Origin: Candidatus Gastranaerophilaceae bacterium
GTDB lineage: Bacteria > Cyanobacteriota > Vampirovibrionia > Gastranaerophilales > Gastranaerophilaceae
Direction: 5' to 3'
Assembly: GCA_045638605.1 (NCBI GenBank)
Contig: JAZUBS010000034.1
Coordinates: 30,112-94,111 of the forward strand
Length of the DNA stretch: 64,000 nucleotides
In this document: in pieces, positions 8,190 to 56,396 of the stretch
Numbering within the stretch: the first letter of the stretch is position 1
Layout: the number at the start of each line of letters is the position of its first letter
Position numbers and translations under genes: made by a program
Notes under the pieces: generated by a model
Told to the model about the DNA's origin: nothing
What the model saw: only the letters and a program-made list of their open reading frames with translations
Databases searched by the model: none

Positions 8190-8519
8190 TTATTTATGCC
8201 AAGTTTTTATGTATTCACTCATTGATTCACGAGTTAAGGTCTTTGAACTAATAGGACACCAAGGCGCAAGCGCGTTTTTAATAAATCCTTTAAGCCCTCT
8301 TCCTATAGATTTTATTTTAAATGATAATACTCCATTAGAATTTGCGTTAATCAATAAATTGTAATTGGCTTTCTTTTTAAATTCAGCAACAACTTCCGAT
8401 GAAAGGAGTTTACATGTTTGCGTTAGACCAACTTTTAAAAAATTTTGTTCATTATGAAAAACAACACCTCTAAAAGACATTGAATTATTATTTGTATTAT
8501 TAACTGCGGCTAATTTCAT
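8190..8519 (-). CDS. hypothetical protein, tandem paralog of 8538..9014
   Basis: Shares SF[RG][GR]VxFHN...KIKSxGRGLxGFIxNxxAPW...YIxxWH with the upstream ORF. Confidence 0.6.
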   Translation of the reverse strand: MKLAAVNNTNNNSMSFRGVVFHNEQNFLKVGLTQTCKLLSSEVVAEFKKKANYNLLINANSNGVLSFKIKSIGRGLKGFIKNALAPWCPISSKTLTRESMSEYIKTWHK

Positions 8520-8537: not shown

Positions 8538-9014
8538 TTATATATCTTGCTTTTCTACCTTCGTTAACAGATTAAGATTTTCTTTTTCTTTTACTTTTTC
8601 TTCTGTTTGAATTTTTTGTAATCTTATTTTTCTAGTATTAGTATCAATTTTTTCTTGAGCCTTAGCCTTTTTATATGCGGCTTTACTAGGATGCCAAATA
8701 TCTATATAATCCTCACAATCAATTTTACTAAGTGCCGTTGTATAAAATCGTTTCCAAGGAGCGATAAAATTAGTAATAAACCCATATAAACCTCGTCCTA
8801 CTGATTTTATTTTATATTTAAAAATCTTTTCCTTAGTATTTGTTGTTATGTGTAAGTCAAAATCCTTTCTTTTAGAAAATTCTTTTACAGCACTAGTATT
8901 AACAAGATTATCAATGACTTCAGTGCTTAACTTTACTAAGTCTTTTTTATTGTGAAAATAAACTCTACCAAAAGAAGTCGTATTATTTGTTGTGCTTATT
9001 GAATTTATTTGCAT
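8538..9014 (-). CDS. hypothetical protein, tandem paralog of 8190..8519 with a Lys/Glu-rich tail
   Basis: See the paralog alignment above. Starts 9 nt downstream of the dxs stop, so it is probably co-transcribed. Confidence 0.6.
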   Translation of the reverse strand: MQINSISTTNNTTSFGRVYFHNKKDLVKLSTEVIDNLVNTSAVKEFSKRKDFDLHITTNTKEKIFKYKIKSVGRGLYGFITNFIAPWKRFYTTALSKIDCEDYIDIWHPSKAAYKKAKAQEKIDTNTRKIRLQKIQTEEKVKEKENLNLLTKVEKQDI

Positions 9015-45115: not shown

Positions 45116-47824
45116 ATGAAAATTGAGTTTTTGTCTTCACGATTACATTCTATTCAATCTAATCACAATATTAGTCAAAAATTAACAACTAGATGCCCTC
45201 AAAATTTAAACAATTCAGAACGATTAGGTCCGGTTGTGCGGATAAGTTTTCGTGGTAATTTTGATAAAAATGCCAAACAATTTATTAACATAGCTGCAGA
45301 AGATAAAGGATTAGGTCTTAAAGAATACAGTAAAGGCGGCTTAGCCGTTGTTGTAAAAGAAGCAAATGAAAGTTGGAATAATACTCTAGATGCTGATTCA
45401 AGAGTTATCTTGCCTTACCACGCCCCAGACAACGCCGGAGGAAATGTTAAGGTTTTAATGAAAATTGAGTATGATAAAAATGGCAAACAAATCCTTAGAG
45501 CTAATACAATGGATATAAAACCCGTTCCTGTGGATTATAGGTTGGCTGATGGTGAAATTTTTATATTGCAATCTATTCCCGATGAAAATGGTGTTTCAAA
45601 ATACTTACCTATTGAAAGATTAGATATTCATGGATATGTGAAAACGTTTGAGAATAATAGTTTAAATGTTATAAATGAACCATATCAATTATTTAAAGTT
45701 ATAGAACCTAATGCATCGAAAAATACTGTTACAAGGTATTTAATGCATACACGTAATTTAGCACGGGTAGCTCATTCATATGGATATTCCGCCACAGATA
45801 ATATTGATATGGCAGCTTATGGAAAAAATTTAAAATCCGATTTATTATATTCTATTCATAATAAAGCAATAGCCGATGCCTTACCAAAGTTAAATACAGA
45901 AAAACATGGCTATTTTAACCCTGCTAATATATGGCTACATGATAGACAGGCTTTTTCAACATTGATAGATATTGCAGATAGAAGTAATTCTGGAGATGCT
46001 TATTATAATGGCTTTAAGATACATTCTACTTTTCATAATAATGGACGCTCGTATCAAGGTTTTTACTCTGACCCGTTAGAATTCTTTAGAATAGTTGCAA
46101 CTAATCGTTCAATTGCAGAGTTGAAAATTCATCCTCGGTATAATGAATTAAAAGAAATTGAAGCACGACGCATAGCCGGTAAAATGACAAAAGATGATAT
46201 AAATATAGCAAAAGAAATATTGAAAGATGTCATCGATCCTTATTTAGATAGCGAAGGAACTTATAATGTTACAAAAATTGCTTTACATGGAGCAAATGTA
46301 AATCCTAATAATATGACTTGTGGGACAGTTTCTTTAAACTATGGCAAAGAATCACGTTGCGCTAATACTTATGATATAACACTAGGATTAACAGATGATT
46401 TTGCAAAAACCAAAACAATTGATATTACTAACGGTTCTTCTCAAGCAAGTTTAGAATTAGATAACCCTTATGCCGATTTTGGACATGGAAAAAATGGACT
46501 AAGTGCTAATAAATCTACTTTTAATGTATTTAAGTATGATAAATCTGAAAAATTTTTGATGACACCTAAAGAAGTTATTGAAACTAAAAAAGCCAATACA
46601 AAATGGCTATTAAATTTAATAGGTAATGCAGATACAAGTAAAAATCAAAATGCATTATTAGATTTATTTTTTAATCCAGAGCAAAAAAAAGTTTTTTCAA
46701 TTTTGGGTCAATTATCACCTTATAAGGATGGCGATATATTAATTATGGGATGGGGAAGACCTGATCCACAAAAGGGTATGCCAACAACACTAGAAGCCTT
46801 TCTGAAATTCTTACAAGATGAAACTGTACCAGAAGATATAAAATTAAAAACAAAACTTTTAGCCGGTGCTGGTGTTTGGGATGAAGGGACAAGAGATTGG
46901 AATAATATTCAAAAATTTGTAAGACAAATTCAAACAATGGATAAGGGAAAATATTATCATAATGTAATGTACATTAATGGTTTTTTCCCTAATAGATTAG
47001 CAGCTTGCGCAACTTATTCGCTTTTTACTTCTGTATTTGAACCTTGTGGTTTAACGCCATTAGAATCATATACAGCGCATACCCCTGTTATTTCTATAAA
47101 TACAGGCGGAGCTCCAAATTTTATTAAAAGCTTAACATCTGAAGCAAATTCTGTTACAGATGAAACTGGATTCTTATCGAAAAGCCCATATCTATTGAAT
47201 TTTGATAACAAAAATTTTTCTTATACAAATGAAGAAAAAATTCAATTGTCAAAGGATAAAAATTTTGATATAAAATGGCAAATTGTTGATAATAAACGCA
47301 GAGAATTAGCATCAGAAGAAATTTCTAAATGTATAAAAAAAGCCGTTCTTTTAGATCCAGATAACTATGAAAAAATGGTTGCTAATACTATGAAACAAAA
47401 AATTGGCTGGCATGAAAACTCGGCTTATAATATTGATTTACATACCCAAAAACTTATTGCTACAACAATAGACTACAATGAAATAAATAATCCTCTAAGC
47501 GCAAATGGACGTTATATGGGCGAAGTTTTTGAGGTTACAATAGGAGAAAATAGGAAATTAACCGGTGATTTTCTTAAACCACGTTTTGTTGAAAATCTTA
47601 AACGCTTAAGTGGATTTAATGAAAGATTTTCTGAAGCTATGAAAAAAGCTGAAATTATGCAATCGGCTAAGGCTACAAGATACGGGAAAATAGTTACAGC
47701 TTCAGCTCTTGGTATTATAGCATTAAGCACAGGCGTTTTGCTGTATTTAAGCAAATTTAGAAATTCTTTATCTATTGTTTCAGACTTGTCTAAAAACAAG
47801 CAAAAAATAGATAAAATAGCATAA
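45116..47824 (+). CDS. divergent GT5 (glycogen/starch synthase-like) glycosyltransferase with N-terminal leader and C-terminal TM anchor
   Basis: 902 aa. INIAAE...SKGGLAVVV is a KxGGL-like donor motif. GWGRPDPQKGMPTTLEAF and FEPCGLTPLESY...GGAP are typical of the GT5 C-terminal lobe. Last ~40 aa contain the TM segment IVTASALGIIALSTGVLLYL. Confidence 0.7.
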   Translation: MKIEFLSSRLHSIQSNHNISQKLTTRCPQNLNNSERLGPVVRISFRGNFDKNAKQFINIAAEDKGLGLKEYSKGGLAVVVKEANESWNNTLDADSRVILPYHAPDNAGGNVKVLMKIEYDKNGKQILRANTMDIKPVPVDYRLADGEIFILQSIPDENGVSKYLPIERLDIHGYVKTFENNSLNVINEPYQLFKVIEPNASKNTVTRYLMHTRNLARVAHSYGYSATDNIDMAAYGKNLKSDLLYSIHNKAIADALPKLNTEKHGYFNPANIWLHDRQAFSTLIDIADRSNSGDAYYNGFKIHSTFHNNGRSYQGFYSDPLEFFRIVATNRSIAELKIHPRYNELKEIEARRIAGKMTKDDINIAKEILKDVIDPYLDSEGTYNVTKIALHGANVNPNNMTCGTVSLNYGKESRCANTYDITLGLTDDFAKTKTIDITNGSSQASLELDNPYADFGHGKNGLSANKSTFNVFKYDKSEKFLMTPKEVIETKKANTKWLLNLIGNADTSKNQNALLDLFFNPEQKKVFSILGQLSPYKDGDILIMGWGRPDPQKGMPTTLEAFLKFLQDETVPEDIKLKTKLLAGAGVWDEGTRDWNNIQKFVRQIQTMDKGKYYHNVMYINGFFPNRLAACATYSLFTSVFEPCGLTPLESYTAHTPVISINTGGAPNFIKSLTSEANSVTDETGFLSKSPYLLNFDNKNFSYTNEEKIQLSKDKNFDIKWQIVDNKRRELASEEISKCIKKAVLLDPDNYEKMVANTMKQKIGWHENSAYNIDLHTQKLIATTIDYNEINNPLSANGRYMGEVFEVTIGENRKLTGDFLKPRFVENLKRLSGFNERFSEAMKKAEIMQSAKATRYGKIVTASALGIIALSTGVLLYLSKFRNSLSIVSDLSKNKQKIDKIA

Positions 47825-52809: not shown

Positions 52810-55800
52810 TTAATTTTTATGACAAATTATACCTTTTTTAGTGTATTCAATAATTTCTAATATTGATGAATCTAGTTTTTTGAATAGGTCTTGTTTTTCT
52901 TGAGGTTGTTTTGCCTTCCATTCATTAAACATTTGCCAGAATTCGTCTTTGTGAATTATGCAATTACCAGTTCCTACTCTTGATGCATACTTTTTAGTAA
53001 ATTCTCTATTAAAATCAGCATATACTTCAGTAATCAAATCAGAAACCAATTGACCGTTTTTAAGTATTACATCAATATCTTTGTTTATTTTTAATTTATC
53101 TTCATCTGATAAGAAATTAACACCTTTTATAGATTTTTTACCAAAATGTTTACCTTGTCCCATTACTGTGACCATTTTTGTAGCTGCATCTGTTGCCATT
53201 TTCATATCAGTAGTGATTCCCCAGCTACCATCCTGATTATAGAACTTATGTTCGCAAGAGTTTCCTCCGAAACAAAGAACAATATTTGAGAACATTTTTT
53301 CAAAAGAACATTCTGAGTTTTCAATATCTGAAGCAAAAACGCATCCACCATAGAAACCTCGAGGATCTAAAGTTATGAAATTAAGTTTTTCACCTCTGTG
53401 CCAAGGTTGTCCTTTTTTTTCAGCCAAATCAAACATTATTGTCGTATTTAAAGCGTGACCGCATTCGTGTGAGGTAACCATTTCCTTTTCATATTGAGGC
53501 ATATTTGAGATAGAGGGTCTGCCATATAAAAGCTGCAAAAAGGCTTCAGTAAAGTCACTTTTTTCTATTAATTTATGATTTCTTTCTTTTGCAATAGTTT
53601 GAGCTTTGTCTAATATTGTTAATATTTCGATATATGATGAATATTCTGTTATTAACTTAATGTGTTCTTTTATATTTTGCTGGTCTTGATTACTTCCAGC
53701 AAGTTTTATTCCTTTTTTATTAATATAGTAGTCAATAACTTCACTTCTTGCTTTTTCGTTATATCCGGGCGTTTCAACCTCAATTTTGTCTATAAATTTA
53801 AAAGATTTAGAAGTTGCTTCACCGATATTACCGGCATCAAACATTGACCCCATAACAATGATATTCAACCCTTGTTCTTGCGCTTTATTCATTTCTCTGA
53901 TAAGTTGTGACATTGCTTTTTCGTGGTATTGTGAAACAGCTTCACCATATGAAAAATAATCAAAGTTTTCTACAAACAAAATAGTTGATTTATATGGATT
54001 TGTCTCAGCTTGAGCCTTAACCATTCCAAATAGCTTCTTCATAGAGGCTTCAGGACTAAGATTTACATCATCAAACAAATCAACATCTTTTGTACCAAAA
54101 TCAACAGCGTTAATTTCAATATATGGTATTTTGGCTTCGCCGGCTATAGCTTGAGCCGTATATTTTCTTCCTGCTCCAACCGTACCGTCTTGAGAATAGA
54201 TAATAAATCCTTTTGTTCCGATAGATTTATCTTTAATTCTGGAAACAATAGACGCAGCTTCTTTTTTAGTAGCTGGAACACCAACCATGTCTTTAAGTTT
54301 TACACCAGTATCAAACACAACTTTAATAGCAGCATCATTTTCTACAGGTTTAAAAATTTCTTTTGCTTCTTTTACATAATTTTGTACATCTTTTAGTGTT
54401 ATTTTATCTTTATCTACATAGTACGCTGCAATTAATTCCATAACTTTTTGTGCTTTTTCAGGATATGTACCTTTTAATTGATTAGATATTTCAACAGCTT
54501 TATCAATCGCTTGTTTTGTAAAAGGCTTTTTAATTTTTTCCAAAAGTTTCGGTTGTTCATTAAACATTTTTTTTGCTTGAGCCATATTCATCAAAGGCAT
54601 TGAAACTTCGCCAAAGTCCGAGAAAAATAATGACACTGTTCCTTTTGTACTTTGGTTATAATACTTGTCCTTGTCTGCCACCATTAAAAATTTAATATTC
54701 TTAGGTGCTTTTATAAATTCAGGTACATTTATCTCATCAATTGCCAACGCATTTAAACCTCTATCCATTGCAGACATAACCATAATATAGTTTTTATCTT
54801 TGTTTTTTCCTAGTTTATACATTTTTTGAGAAAGATAATTTATATCTAATGCGCCATTATCATTAAAATTAATAATCTCCGTATTCTTTTTGTTTAACTT
54901 ACCAAACCCATCTTTACTATTTTCAAATACATGCAAAAAACTGTTTATTAAGTGACTTGGTTGAATATCTTTATCGTGAAGAATCATCATATTTGTACCT
55001 ATAGCCAAGTTTTTCCAAATGTTCAAGGCTTTGGCATCATAAAATGATAAATGTGTACGCTGAGATAAAGGTTTTTTATCTAATTGAATTTCATCTTTTA
55101 AATCATTTCTAAAAGGTATTGTGATTTCTTTTTTGACCTTGTCATTGTTAGAAAACATTGCAGCTTCAAAAATTGTGTAATCATGAACAAGTCCATCTCC
55201 ACCCATATCATCTTTTTCGTTTGCTTGGTTGTATAAACTATAAATGTCATTTAAAAAATCTTTTGATAGAGGTATATCTTTTGATTTTACAGATGTATTG
55301 ATTATACGCATTTCACTTAATTTTTTATCTAATATTTCAATTTCTTTTTCAATAACTGGTTTGATTTTATCTCTTTTGTTTTTTTCTTTAAAAATATCAT
55401 CCCCAATTTCATCTTCTAAAACTTCATAAGAACTAAAAGAAGATTCATCATTATAATTAACTTCTCCTGAATCTAAGTCATCAATATATTTTTTTATACT
55501 TTCCAATCCTGCTTTTAGGACATGAACTTGTGTGATTTGAGCATGATTATTCTTTTTCGCTATTAATTTCGCATCATCTAATAATTTTTCACCATAATAT
55601 GAAAGGTTTTCGTCTATTTCCAGAGCTTTATCACAAACTTCTTCAGATTTTGTTGTTTTTTTCCCCGAAAAACTAACATAATAATTGTTTAAAAATTCTC
55701 CATTTACCGGGGCTTTAGCTGTATCGTTTATTTCTTGTGCTTGTGTATTTACAATTGGATTTGTCTTTTTATTAGTGTATTTTGTATTATTAACTGAAAC

Positions 55801-55827
55801 CGAATACGGTGCTATTTTTTGAATCAT
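52810..55827 (-). CDS. soluble FtsH-like M41 metalloprotease with degenerate AAA+ module and Clp_N-like N-terminal region
   Basis: GTVGAGRKYTAQAIAGEAKIPY aligns to FtsH [22 protein letters not shown] (Walker A K->R, T->K). ILFVENFD vs IIFIDEID (Walker B). SRH Arg residues absent. HECGHA zinc motif and downstream GGNSCEH and TTDMKMAT are conserved. No TM helix seen. Start chosen at the ATG at 55827, 6 nt after AAGGA. Confidence 0.7.
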   Translation of the reverse strand: MIQKIAPYSVSVNNTKYTNKKTNPIVNTQAQEINDTAKAPVNGEFLNNYYVSFSGKKTTKSEEVCDKALEIDENLSYYGEKLLDDAKLIAKKNNHAQITQVHVLKAGLESIKKYIDDLDSGEVNYNDESSFSSYEVLEDEIGDDIFKEKNKRDKIKPVIEKEIEILDKKLSEMRIINTSVKSKDIPLSKDFLNDIYSLYNQANEKDDMGGDGLVHDYTIFEAAMFSNNDKVKKEITIPFRNDLKDEIQLDKKPLSQRTHLSFYDAKALNIWKNLAIGTNMMILHDKDIQPSHLINSFLHVFENSKDGFGKLNKKNTEIINFNDNGALDINYLSQKMYKLGKNKDKNYIMVMSAMDRGLNALAIDEINVPEFIKAPKNIKFLMVADKDKYYNQSTKGTVSLFFSDFGEVSMPLMNMAQAKKMFNEQPKLLEKIKKPFTKQAIDKAVEISNQLKGTYPEKAQKVMELIAAYYVDKDKITLKDVQNYVKEAKEIFKPVENDAAIKVVFDTGVKLKDMVGVPATKKEAASIVSRIKDKSIGTKGFIIYSQDGTVGAGRKYTAQAIAGEAKIPYIEINAVDFGTKDVDLFDDVNLSPEASMKKLFGMVKAQAETNPYKSTILFVENFDYFSYGEAVSQYHEKAMSQLIREMNKAQEQGLNIIVMGSMFDAGNIGEATSKSFKFIDKIEVETPGYNEKARSEVIDYYINKKGIKLAGSNQDQQNIKEHIKLITEYSSYIEILTILDKAQTIAKERNHKLIEKSDFTEAFLQLLYGRPSISNMPQYEKEMVTSHECGHALNTTIMFDLAEKKGQPWHRGEKLNFITLDPRGFYGGCVFASDIENSECSFEKMFSNIVLCFGGNSCEHKFYNQDGSWGITTDMKMATDAATKMVTVMGQGKHFGKKSIKGVNFLSDEDKLKINKDIDVILKNGQLVSDLITEVYADFNREFTKKYASRVGTGNCIIHKDEFWQMFNEWKAKQPQEKQDLFKKLDSSILEIIEYTKKGIICHKN

Positions 55828-55915
55828 AATCATTCCTTTTTTATATCTATCAATAGCTGTAAAACTCAAGCCAAATATAATTTGCTATTTTTATTAACTT
55901 TTATTAACTAGTAAT

Positions 55916-56260
55916 GTAGGGTACGTCATTGCCAATATCGTAGACGAAGAAATGTGCCGTACGAAAGAGCAAAATCAGGCGGGCGAGCCCCCCCATTCAA
56001 AGCGTCTTGAAATTCCTTATCGCTCAGAAGTTTCGCCTAATGCCATCCGTGCAAGCAGGCTCATTTTCTTCGCTTACCAAACTAATGTTCGTCTGGAATT
56101 TCGCAAAACCACATTTTTGCATAGCGCTTGTATTTCAAGAGAGATATGCAGCCAGCTAGAAGTTTTATTTGAGCATAGCGAAAACTACAATTCTGCGTGC
56201 ATACTTTGACTCACCTATTATTTTTTTAATCTTGAGGGGCGTCAAAACGACCCACCCTAC
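55916..56260. repeat. REP-bracketed GC-elevated non-coding insert
   Basis: GTAGGGTACGTC at 55916 and GAGGGGCGTCAAAACGACCCACCCTAC ending at 56260 are inverted relative to each other. The ~300-bp interior is visibly more GC-rich than its surroundings and has no convincing ORF. Confidence 0.6.
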
Positions 56261-56396
56261 CTTACTGCAAAGTATACATCATTTGACAAGCCAAAAGATT
56301 TAGACTATAAACTTTAACTTACTCACTTTTACCAAAACGCAAATAAAAAGACGTTCCTAAAAATTAGAAACGTCTTTAAATATTTTAAACAAAAGC

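Follow-up and report, generated by a model that had tools for sequence, protein, structure and literature searches.

FtsH is the textbook example of a protease that depends on its own ATPase. To our knowledge, the only well-known degenerate relatives of FtsH, the FtsHi and Ycf2 proteins, have kept the motor and lost the protease. FtsHi proteins keep the Walker A motif GPPGxGKT and lose the HExxH motif of the zinc site (PMC11266112 Table 2). A protease that works without a motor is found in another family: MtaLonC of Meiothermus taiwanensis has an AAA-like module without canonical motifs and can still bind nucleotide, but it shows no ATPase activity, and unfolded proteins are its only substrates (PMC3391209; PMC13069640). 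The subject of this article is a gene for a 1005-residue FtsH-related protein from a Candidatus Gastranaerophilaceae bacterium, located on a 64,000-nucleotide stretch of contig JAZUBS010000034.1 (positions 30,112 to 94,111) that is called the window below. In this protein the zinc site is kept, every catalytic residue of the FtsH-type AAA+ module is replaced, and the membrane anchor gives way to a front half that resembles Clp/Hsp100 proteins.

An M41 zinc site and a degenerate ATPase module

Which part of the protein is related to FtsH? Pfam places Peptidase_M41 (PF01434) at residues 777-902 (E 5e-11; 43.2 bits against a gathering cut-off of 29.9) and AAA at residues 548-668 (E 9e-9, above the gathering score). 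In a phmmer search of the PDB the best match was Aquifex FtsH (E 6.5e-18, residues 509-937), followed by FtsH of Thermotoga, Thermus and E. coli and then by AFG3L2 and plant FtsHi subunits. An AlphaFold2 model of the full-length protein, based on 101 homologues, reached a predicted local distance difference test score (pLDDT) of 88.1 and a predicted template modelling score (pTM) of 0.75, with disorder confined to residues 1-60. When the C-terminal half was compared with the PDB by Foldseek, it matched FtsH (3kds, TMt 0.76), AFG3L2 (6nyy, 0.77) and E. coli FtsH (7wi4, 0.77), with E~1e-19. HMMER, Pfam and Foldseek alike assign residues ~500-950 to the cytosolic region of FtsH.

The M41 domain retains the residues expected of a zinc protease of this type. 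In the HMMER alignment to Aquifex FtsH, HEAGHA is represented by HECGHA, GGRAAEE by GGNSCEH and GAENDLQRAT by GITTDMKMAT; H787, E788, H791, E859 and D874 are invariant in the 101 aligned homologues. The window coordinates of every motif were checked by re-translation (Table 1).

Three cysteines stand out in the C-terminal part of the protein. C789, inside HECGH (window 53455-53469), is at least 90% conserved and replaces an alanine of canonical FtsH. C858, just ahead of the glutamate in GGNSCE (~53254-53256), also stands where canonical FtsH has alanine; it is the majority residue in the family, with alanine or serine in some members. C956 in GTGEC (~52960-52962) is invariant. Together the three could form a redox or extra-metal feature beside the zinc site.

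The AAA+ module that precedes the protease (D2) lacks the canonical residues at each catalytic position. The canonical GEPGVGKT loop of FtsH pairs with G548-TVGAG-R554-K555, with a three-residue insertion ahead of the loop, and sensor-1 reads GSM in place of ATN; the Walker B position and the second region of homology (SRH) are given in Table 1. In 25 of 25 sampled members of the clade the Walker A lysine is replaced by arginine, the Walker B DE by EN and the sensor-1 ATN by GS[MVT], while the SRH arginines are either lysine or absent. Position 555, the Mg-coordinating threonine of canonical FtsH, varies within the clade (K, R, Y, F or N). K677 of the SRH is conserved to at least 90% in the two family alignments, and K674 reaches that level in the 33-sequence alignment only; at the pore-loop position an aromatic residue, F585, is retained. 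A register shift that would make K555 the Walker lysine was considered and rejected, because position 555 is variable and the spacing is wrong. From these motif states we infer that the 1005-residue protein has lost ATP hydrolysis.

Is the protein anchored in the membrane, as FtsH is? The maximum of the 19-residue Kyte-Doolittle mean is 0.92, compared with 2.0-2.7 for canonical FtsH and 2.67 for SecY encoded in the window, and therefore a membrane anchor is absent. Pfam finds no match to FtsH_ext (PF06480) in the 1005 residues. The protein is thus predicted to be a soluble, anchor-less derivative of FtsH. Most of this had been proposed in the original prediction, which was made by hand alignment to E. 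coli FtsH and held that the M41 zinc site is intact, that Walker A, Walker B and SRH are non-canonical and that there is no transmembrane helix. Residue for residue, the hand alignment of the Walker A, Walker B, SRH and zinc motifs agrees with the HMMER alignment and with the Pfam register (GTVGAGRK, ILFVENFD and KSFKFID for the three ATPase motifs), and the domain mapping that it had proposed places both AAA and Peptidase_M41 above their gathering scores.

The front half of the protein was modelled separately with AlphaFold, using residues 61-497 and 59 fragments translated out of related genomes (pLDDT 92.0, pTM 0.87). The top 50 Foldseek matches of this model are all class I Hsp100 proteins (ClpC, ClpA, ClpB, Hsp104 and ClpC1), with E-values from 4.6e-10 to 2e-6. 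Where the matched chain contains both an N-domain and the first AAA+ module (D1), 450-480 columns are aligned; where it contains D1 only, 250-270 are aligned. D1-only chains of ClpA, ClpC1 and ClpC superpose with a root-mean-square deviation of 4.5-5.2 A (E~1e-7). This D1 lacks a P-loop: in the window protein IGTNMMILHDKDIQPS occupies the GEPGVGKT position and NYIMVMSAMD the Walker B position. No member of the family has GK[ST] at the D1 position, and the Walker B DE of D1 is likewise missing.

The sequence profiles give a weaker signal for the N-domain. Pfam reports Clp_N (PF02861) below threshold (E 0.082; 13.5 bits against a cut-off of 20.7), one of the 59 homologous fragments matches it at E<=0.01, and the ClpC N-domain is matched by sequence at E~0.1. 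The identity of residues 61-250 as a Clp N-domain is accepted here on its modelled fold only. As judged from the models, a Clp/Hsp100 N-domain and, after it, a D1-type AAA+ module make up the front half. A Clp_N-like front end had been part of the original prediction, and it is upheld by the Foldseek comparison of residues 61-497 and not by the sequence profile. The second P-loop-less region that had been proposed for the N-terminal half does exist, and it folds as an Hsp100-type D1.

Table 1. Features of the gene and its product, in window coordinates.
Feature	Coordinates	Strand	Basis
FtsH-derived anchor-less protein gene, 1005 aa	52810..55827	(-)	ATG at 55827; stop codon 52810-52812
Shine-Dalgarno-like AAAGGA	55834..55839	(-)	6 nt ahead of ATG 55827
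N-terminal leader (residues 1-60), disordered, N/T/Q/K-rich, between MIxKI and YYVSFxG motifs	55648..55827	(-)	AlphaFold; alignment
Helical Clp/Hsp100 N-domain-like module (residues 61-250)	55078..55647	(-)	Foldseek; weak sequence matches
Hsp100-type D1 AAA+ module without P-loop (residues 255-497)	54337..55065	(-)	AlphaFold model; Foldseek
FtsH-type AAA+ module, D2 (residues 500-770), all catalytic ATPase residues replaced	53518..54330	(-)	Pfam, HMMER, Foldseek
Walker A position GTVGAGRK (canonical GPPGTGKT); G551, G553, R554 invariant	54163..54186	(-)	alignment
Pore-loop-1 position FGTKDVDLFD (canonical FVEMFVGVGA); F585 at least 90% conserved	54070..54099	(-)	alignment
Walker B position ILFVENFD (canonical IIFIDEID); N621, F622 invariant	53959..53982	(-)	alignment
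SRH position SKSFKFID (canonical RPGRFD); both arginines replaced by Lys	53788..53811	(-)	alignment
Peptidase M41 domain (residues 778-950)	52978..53496	(-)	Pfam PF01434; Foldseek
Zinc motif HECGH (H787, E788, H791 invariant)	53455..53469	(-)	HMMER alignment; homologue alignment
E859 in GGNSCEH, paired with Glu of FtsH GGRAAEE; invariant	53251..53253	(-)	alignment
D874 in GITTDM, paired with Asp of FtsH GAxND; invariant	53206..53208	(-)	alignment
C-terminal helical extension, family-specific (residues 951-1005); G954, C956, W970 invariant	52813..52977	(-)	alignment; AlphaFold model

Conservation, distribution and origin

The protein is not confined to the window. A word-indexed search found 234 proteins; for most of the best 120 of these 234, the match extends over almost the entire query, with identities of 41-98%. 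When one genome of each prokaryotic species was scanned, relatives were present in at least 99 species genomes, two complete chromosomes included, and the titles are nearly all Gastranaerophilales, Melainabacteria or 'Cyanobacteria bacterium'. The closest named genus among the carriers is Candidatus Limenecus, of Gastranaerophilaceae. The carriers, which are uncultured, are widespread gut bacteria whose hosts are ruminants, horses, rodents and humans, and the DNA runs in which the gene was found are sheep, bovine and other gut metagenomes. Source names of family members include 'AAA family ATPase' and 'AAA+ superfamily predicted ATPase', while active relatives are named FtsH.

Could the AAA+ module simply be decaying? 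Several of the odd residues at its ATPase positions (G551, G553, R554, N621, F622 and F678) are invariant in the 101 aligned homologues. The gene is intact, unambiguous and full-length at 78 of 80 related loci. For eight independent close pairs, the ratio of nonsynonymous to synonymous substitution rates (dN/dS) is 0.05-0.14 over the whole gene, 0.02-0.20 in the M41 domain and 0.01-0.08 in D2, the lowest of all domains. Invariant substitutions, low dN/dS, intact genes and the breadth of carriers together indicate a functional gene and not a decaying one. Since D2 has the lowest dN/dS, it must be under strong constraint for something besides ATP hydrolysis.

Where does this clade come from? An exhaustive HMMER search over 1.84 billion representatives gave 1686 matches. 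Beyond the dead-motif proteins of ~1000 aa, it recovered a set of proteins of 830-1100 aa at 25-30% identity. These also have the leader, a P-loop-less D1, the C-terminal extension and a protease with HE[CG]GH, and they too lack a membrane anchor, but their ATPase motifs are canonical (GxPGxGKT, FIDE[FI]D, ATN and RPGRFD), in contrast to those of the dead-motif clade. The ATP-competent members are P0156, P0159, P0165, P0167, P0265 and P0266, together with the short forms P0202, P0379, P0398 and P0400. Their source names are 'Vampirovibrionia bacterium', 'Cyanobacteriota bacterium' and 'Candidatus Gastranaerophilales bacterium', and by these names the leader family belongs to Vampirovibrionia.

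A maximum-likelihood tree, built by a quick search on 458 columns of the core that 72 sequences share, splits the leader family from canonical FtsH with a Shimodaira-Hasegawa-like approximate likelihood ratio test (SH-aLRT) support of 100. Within the family the dead-motif clade is monophyletic (SH-aLRT 100) and has a long stem. Its sister is P0158, a partly degenerate protein of 1416 aa (GSQGSGKR, VEDFDNF, no arginine fingers), and the next group out is an ATP-competent clade with a Clp-like N-domain (94). Judging by its motifs, P0158 looks like an evolutionary intermediate. A second, separate clade that is partly degenerate (SH-aLRT 100) comprises P0177, P0189, P0193, P0209 and P0349; here the SRH arginines are lost and Walker B is partly lost (LDNFE, IDNID, INDFD), and most members keep GSGKT. 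This suggests that degeneration of the ATPase occurred more than once in the leader family. The dead-motif clade thus appears as a derived branch of a wider family of leader-bearing, anchor-less FtsH paralogues. The tree and the motif states indicate that the family was soluble and its D1 dead before the ATPase was lost. The N-terminus of P0158 is also unusual in that it contains three consecutive Clp_N-like repeats.

One of the ATP-competent short paralogues, P0400 (927 aa; HEGGH; leader MITKVSIV...IVSFGSAS), can be placed in a genome together with a dead-motif gene. P0400 is encoded on contig JAZLGV010000059.1 and the dead-type gene of locus L078 on JAZLGV010000132.1, in the same Gastranaerophilaceae assembly; binning error aside, dead and active forms can coexist in one genome. 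A tblastn search with canonical and active queries found neither a canonical FtsH nor an ATP-competent paralogue beside the gene in 85 sequences (84 loci and the window; 1.34 Mb). Only one neighbour was seen to recur beside members of the leader family, a gene for a MazG-family nucleotide pyrophosphohydrolase, which lies directly upstream of an ATP-competent short paralogue in two genomes (L091 1098-4784, and the place of P0397 in GCA_016648615.1).

Possible modes of action

With the domain architecture, motif states, conservation, purifying selection and evolutionary origin established, how might such a protein work? The reading that is favoured here, with about even confidence, is that it acts as a chambered zinc protease that is independent of ATP hydrolysis and functionally like LonC. 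The protein would be arranged in three stacked tiers: the Clp/Hsp100 N-domain with D1 at the top, the FtsH-type AAA+ module in the middle and the M41 peptidase at the bottom. Neither AAA+ tier has the residues for ATP hydrolysis. An FtsH-like ring would be assembled through the M41 and AAA+ domains, and unstructured or unfolded polypeptides would reach the zinc sites by a static axial channel, with no ATP-powered unfolding. The Clp-like N-domains may serve as docking sites for substrates or adaptors, and the glycine-rich loop with its arginine and lysine may be a structural or ligand-sensing site and not a motor. In this scheme we infer the oligomeric state, the absence of ATPase activity, the proteolytic activity and the class of substrate. 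The original prediction of a soluble pseudo-ATPase protease stands in its structural part (domains, motifs, no anchor), and its functional part, 'pseudo-ATPase protease', is a plausible deduction from the motifs.

Several observations weigh against this reading. No RNA runs carrying the gene were found. The presence of P0400 in the same assembly as the dead-type gene of L078 means that the protein may not act alone. In addition, the strongest constraint falls on the 'dead' D2, and Gly-x-Gly-Arg and two lysines are kept at phosphate-binding places; the D2 site may bind, or even slowly turn over, nucleotide.

The ATP-competent paralogue in the same metagenome-assembled genome (MAG) makes concrete the option that the protein needs a partner. 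It would then be a non-hydrolysing subunit of a mixed ring with an active paralogue of the P0400 type, or with another unfoldase, in which the partner is the motor and the dead subunit gives protease sites and Clp-like docking domains, the reverse of FtsHi/FtsH12/Ycf2. The leader, the M41 domain and a D1 without a P-loop are common to both paralogues. Heterohexamers are well known in the FtsH family, as in cyanobacterial FtsH1/3 and 2/3 (PMC8047818), Ycf2-FtsHi (PDB 8xku, 8xks) is among the fold matches, and the very tight constraint on D2 would be compatible with an extensive interface between proteins. However, the trans-acting arginines of the SRH are lost, which would leave the subunit unable to trigger hydrolysis in the site of an adjacent one. 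The paralogues are only ~25-30% identical and fall on separate well-supported branches, they are adjacent in no locus examined, and their co-occurrence was seen in one MAG only, where binning errors are possible. A mixed ring is the chief alternative to the favoured reading, and it seems somewhat unlikely.

The P-loop spacing with its invariant arginine, and the basic SRH positions, make non-hydrolytic ligand binding a live variant of the ATP-independent protease. Taken further, the GxGR[KR] loop and lysine 'fingers' would form a modified nucleotide site for ATP or another phosphate ligand, and binding or very slow hydrolysis would act as a switch for assembly or gating, which would make proteolysis nucleotide-dependent and not energy-dependent. 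G548, G551, G553 and R554 retain the P-loop spacing, both SRH arginine positions stay basic (K677 at least 90% conserved in both alignments, K674 to the same degree in the smaller one) and D2 is the most constrained domain. There is also a precedent in LonC, which without ATPase activity binds six nucleotides per hexamer (PMC3391209) and whose apo pentamers are phosphate-bound (PMC13069640). Against such a switch, the Mg-coordinating threonine is replaced by a variable residue, the Walker B aspartate and glutamate and the sensor-1 asparagine are replaced, and the three-residue insertion lies ahead of the loop. A modified site of this kind is judged decidedly unlikely.

What is the role of the leader? 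The leader-like N-terminal segment noted in the original prediction is real in the sense that it is present, is disordered in the full-length model (pLDDT <50 at residues 1-43 and 49-60) and is conserved at two short motifs, with F53 invariant and I2 at least 90% conserved. ATP-competent relatives carry a similar leader, M[IL]xK[IV] ... L(K/Q)ANF[IL]SF[KL]G. By a hydropathy scan and direct reading, it lacks a hydrophobic core and shows none of the features of Sec, Tat or lipoprotein signals. Leaders of similar appearance, with M-K/L-I-x-x-I/L, 30-45 low-complexity residues and then [VIL]SF[KRST]G, were observed on unrelated proteins, among them window open reading frames (ORFs) at 45116-47824 (+), 8190-8519 (-) and 8538-9014 (-). 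Examples are a glycosyltransferase-like protein of 902 aa (…VVRISFRGN) and a kinase-like ORF of locus L018 (…DTVSFSGKE), as well as L037 (…CNLSFKGQP) and L075 (…QSISFTGLA) at other loci. The loose leader motif occurs at 11 of 646 N-termini and in 16 of 2232 internal windows, an enrichment of ~2.4-fold in small numbers. A profile HMM of the FtsH-family leader, run over 1.34 Mb of related DNA, gave no match to an unrelated ORF.

One reading of the leader is that it is a lineage-specific signal that targets an exported or compartmentalised protease to a place free of ATP; the loss of the ATPase would then be explained. Its disorder, its two conserved motifs and the loosely similar N-termini on unrelated proteins, at the enrichment just given, are compatible with this. 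Yet relatives with fully canonical ATPase motifs bear the same leader and must work where ATP is available; together with the lack of a hydrophobic core and of known export features, and with a leader profile that finds no unrelated ORF, this makes an export signal very unlikely. A more far-reaching reading takes the leader (M-x-x-K/P-I ... low-complexity ... [VIL]-S-F-x-G) as a lineage-specific tag, borne by a set of unrelated proteins of Melainabacteria and by the whole FtsH-paralogue family; this family would recognise, trim or degrade the proteins that bear it. The Clp-like N-domain would be the tag receptor; processing without energy would fall to the dead long form, and degradation to the ATP-competent short form. 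This is very unlikely; if true, the sister lineage of Cyanobacteria would have a system for N-terminal tagging and processing that has so far gone unrecognised.

Gene setting and comparison with known systems

The longest ORF at the locus, 52810-55869 (-), opens with TTG at 55869. The ATG at 55827 is almost certainly the true start of the protein, because AAAGGA lies 6 nt upstream of it and because all homologues in the family alignment open with MI[QE]KI; the spacing of AAAGGA and the homologous N-termini make the TTG an unlikely start. The 570-bp spacer between the gene and secY contains GC-rich palindromic units of the GTAGGGTACGTC type, which resemble repetitive extragenic palindromic (REP) elements, at window 55916-56260, and a strong hairpin terminator lies 3' of secY at 56347-56377. 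With a REP-like spacer and a terminator after secY, the gene looks monocistronic.

Flanking genes differ between loci: hom-thrC and secY in the window, a GT9 glycosyltransferase and a tetratricopeptide repeat (TPR) protein at L081, and enolase and small ORFs at L083. No conserved neighbour of the dead-type gene was found among these three loci. The idea of an operon partner was dropped, as the flanks differ completely. Two small ORFs (71 and 68 aa, without a Pfam match) lie directly 3' of the P0117 orthologue at L083 (11072-11516) and L084 (6396-6840), and are missing from the window and L081.

How does the protein compare with what has been described? It shares with FtsH (MEROPS M41; TIGR01241; Aquifex aeolicus, Thermotoga maritima, E. 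coli) a classic-clade AAA+ module followed by an M41 domain with HExxH and a downstream glutamate and aspartate, and the fold of the large and small AAA+ subdomains and protease agrees at TM 0.76-0.77. In contrast to FtsH, it has no pair of transmembrane helices flanking a periplasmic domain, its Walker A, Walker B, sensor-1 and arginine fingers are all replaced, and it carries an extra ~440 residues of Hsp100-like N-domain and D1 as well as a 60-residue leader. A branch with 100% support sets it apart, and it scores 85.5 bits against the cut-off of 600 for the NCBIfam FtsH equivalog TIGR01241 and 48.5 bits against 1008 for NF008004. By its ATPase motifs, its lack of an anchor and its equivalog scores, the protein is not FtsH proper. 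It resembles the ATP-competent paralogues in its leader, P-loop-less D1, lack of an anchor, HE[CG]GH and C-terminal extension, and differs from them in that its clade has lost all four of the ATPase motifs that they keep. Fully active, partly degenerate and dead forms thus occur in one bacterial class, which suits tracing the origin of AAA+ pseudo-enzymes.

The plant and algal FtsHi and Ycf2 proteins of the chloroplast import motor are similar in that the FtsH scaffold is kept and one of two catalytic activities is given up, and structures containing them are among the Foldseek matches (8xku, 8xks, 8xqw). The polarity is opposite, as the window protein keeps HExxH and loses the ATPase motifs; the original prediction had already called FtsHi the opposite case, in agreement with the table in PMC11266112. 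A specific kinship with FtsHi or Ycf2 is not indicated, since the match to FtsHi1 (E 2.6e-8) is weaker than those to bacterial FtsH. Full-text searches of the literature found no description of a dead-ATPase FtsH family in Melainabacteria, Vampirovibrionia or Gastranaerophilales, and no paper joining FtsH with pseudo-ATPase.

For class I Clp/Hsp100 proteins (ClpC, ClpA, ClpB, Hsp104), the likeness is confined to residues 61-497, which fold as an N-domain and D1, with large and small subdomains, in the same order. Here, however, D1 is without Walker A and B, the second tier is of the FtsH type and not an Hsp100 D2, an M-domain and a ClpP-docking loop are both missing, and the protease belongs to the same polypeptide. 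Searches turned up no other case of an Hsp100 N-domain and D1 fused to an FtsH core.

LonC offers a functional analogy, with no homology, as a self-compartmentalising protease of AAA+ type that is independent of ATP. LonC has a Lon Ser-Lys (S16) protease domain, one AAA-like tier and no Clp N-domain, and it belongs to a different phylum; in the window protein Pfam finds no Lon protease domain and only a weak LonB_AAA-LID match below the cut-off. The present family can be regarded as a natural experiment on FtsH, in which the protease is kept and two stacked AAA+ rings, both under strong purifying selection, are without hydrolytic residues. It makes it possible to test what a conserved 'dead' P-loop with arginine and lysine is for, and whether an M41 chamber, like that of LonC, can function in the absence of a motor.

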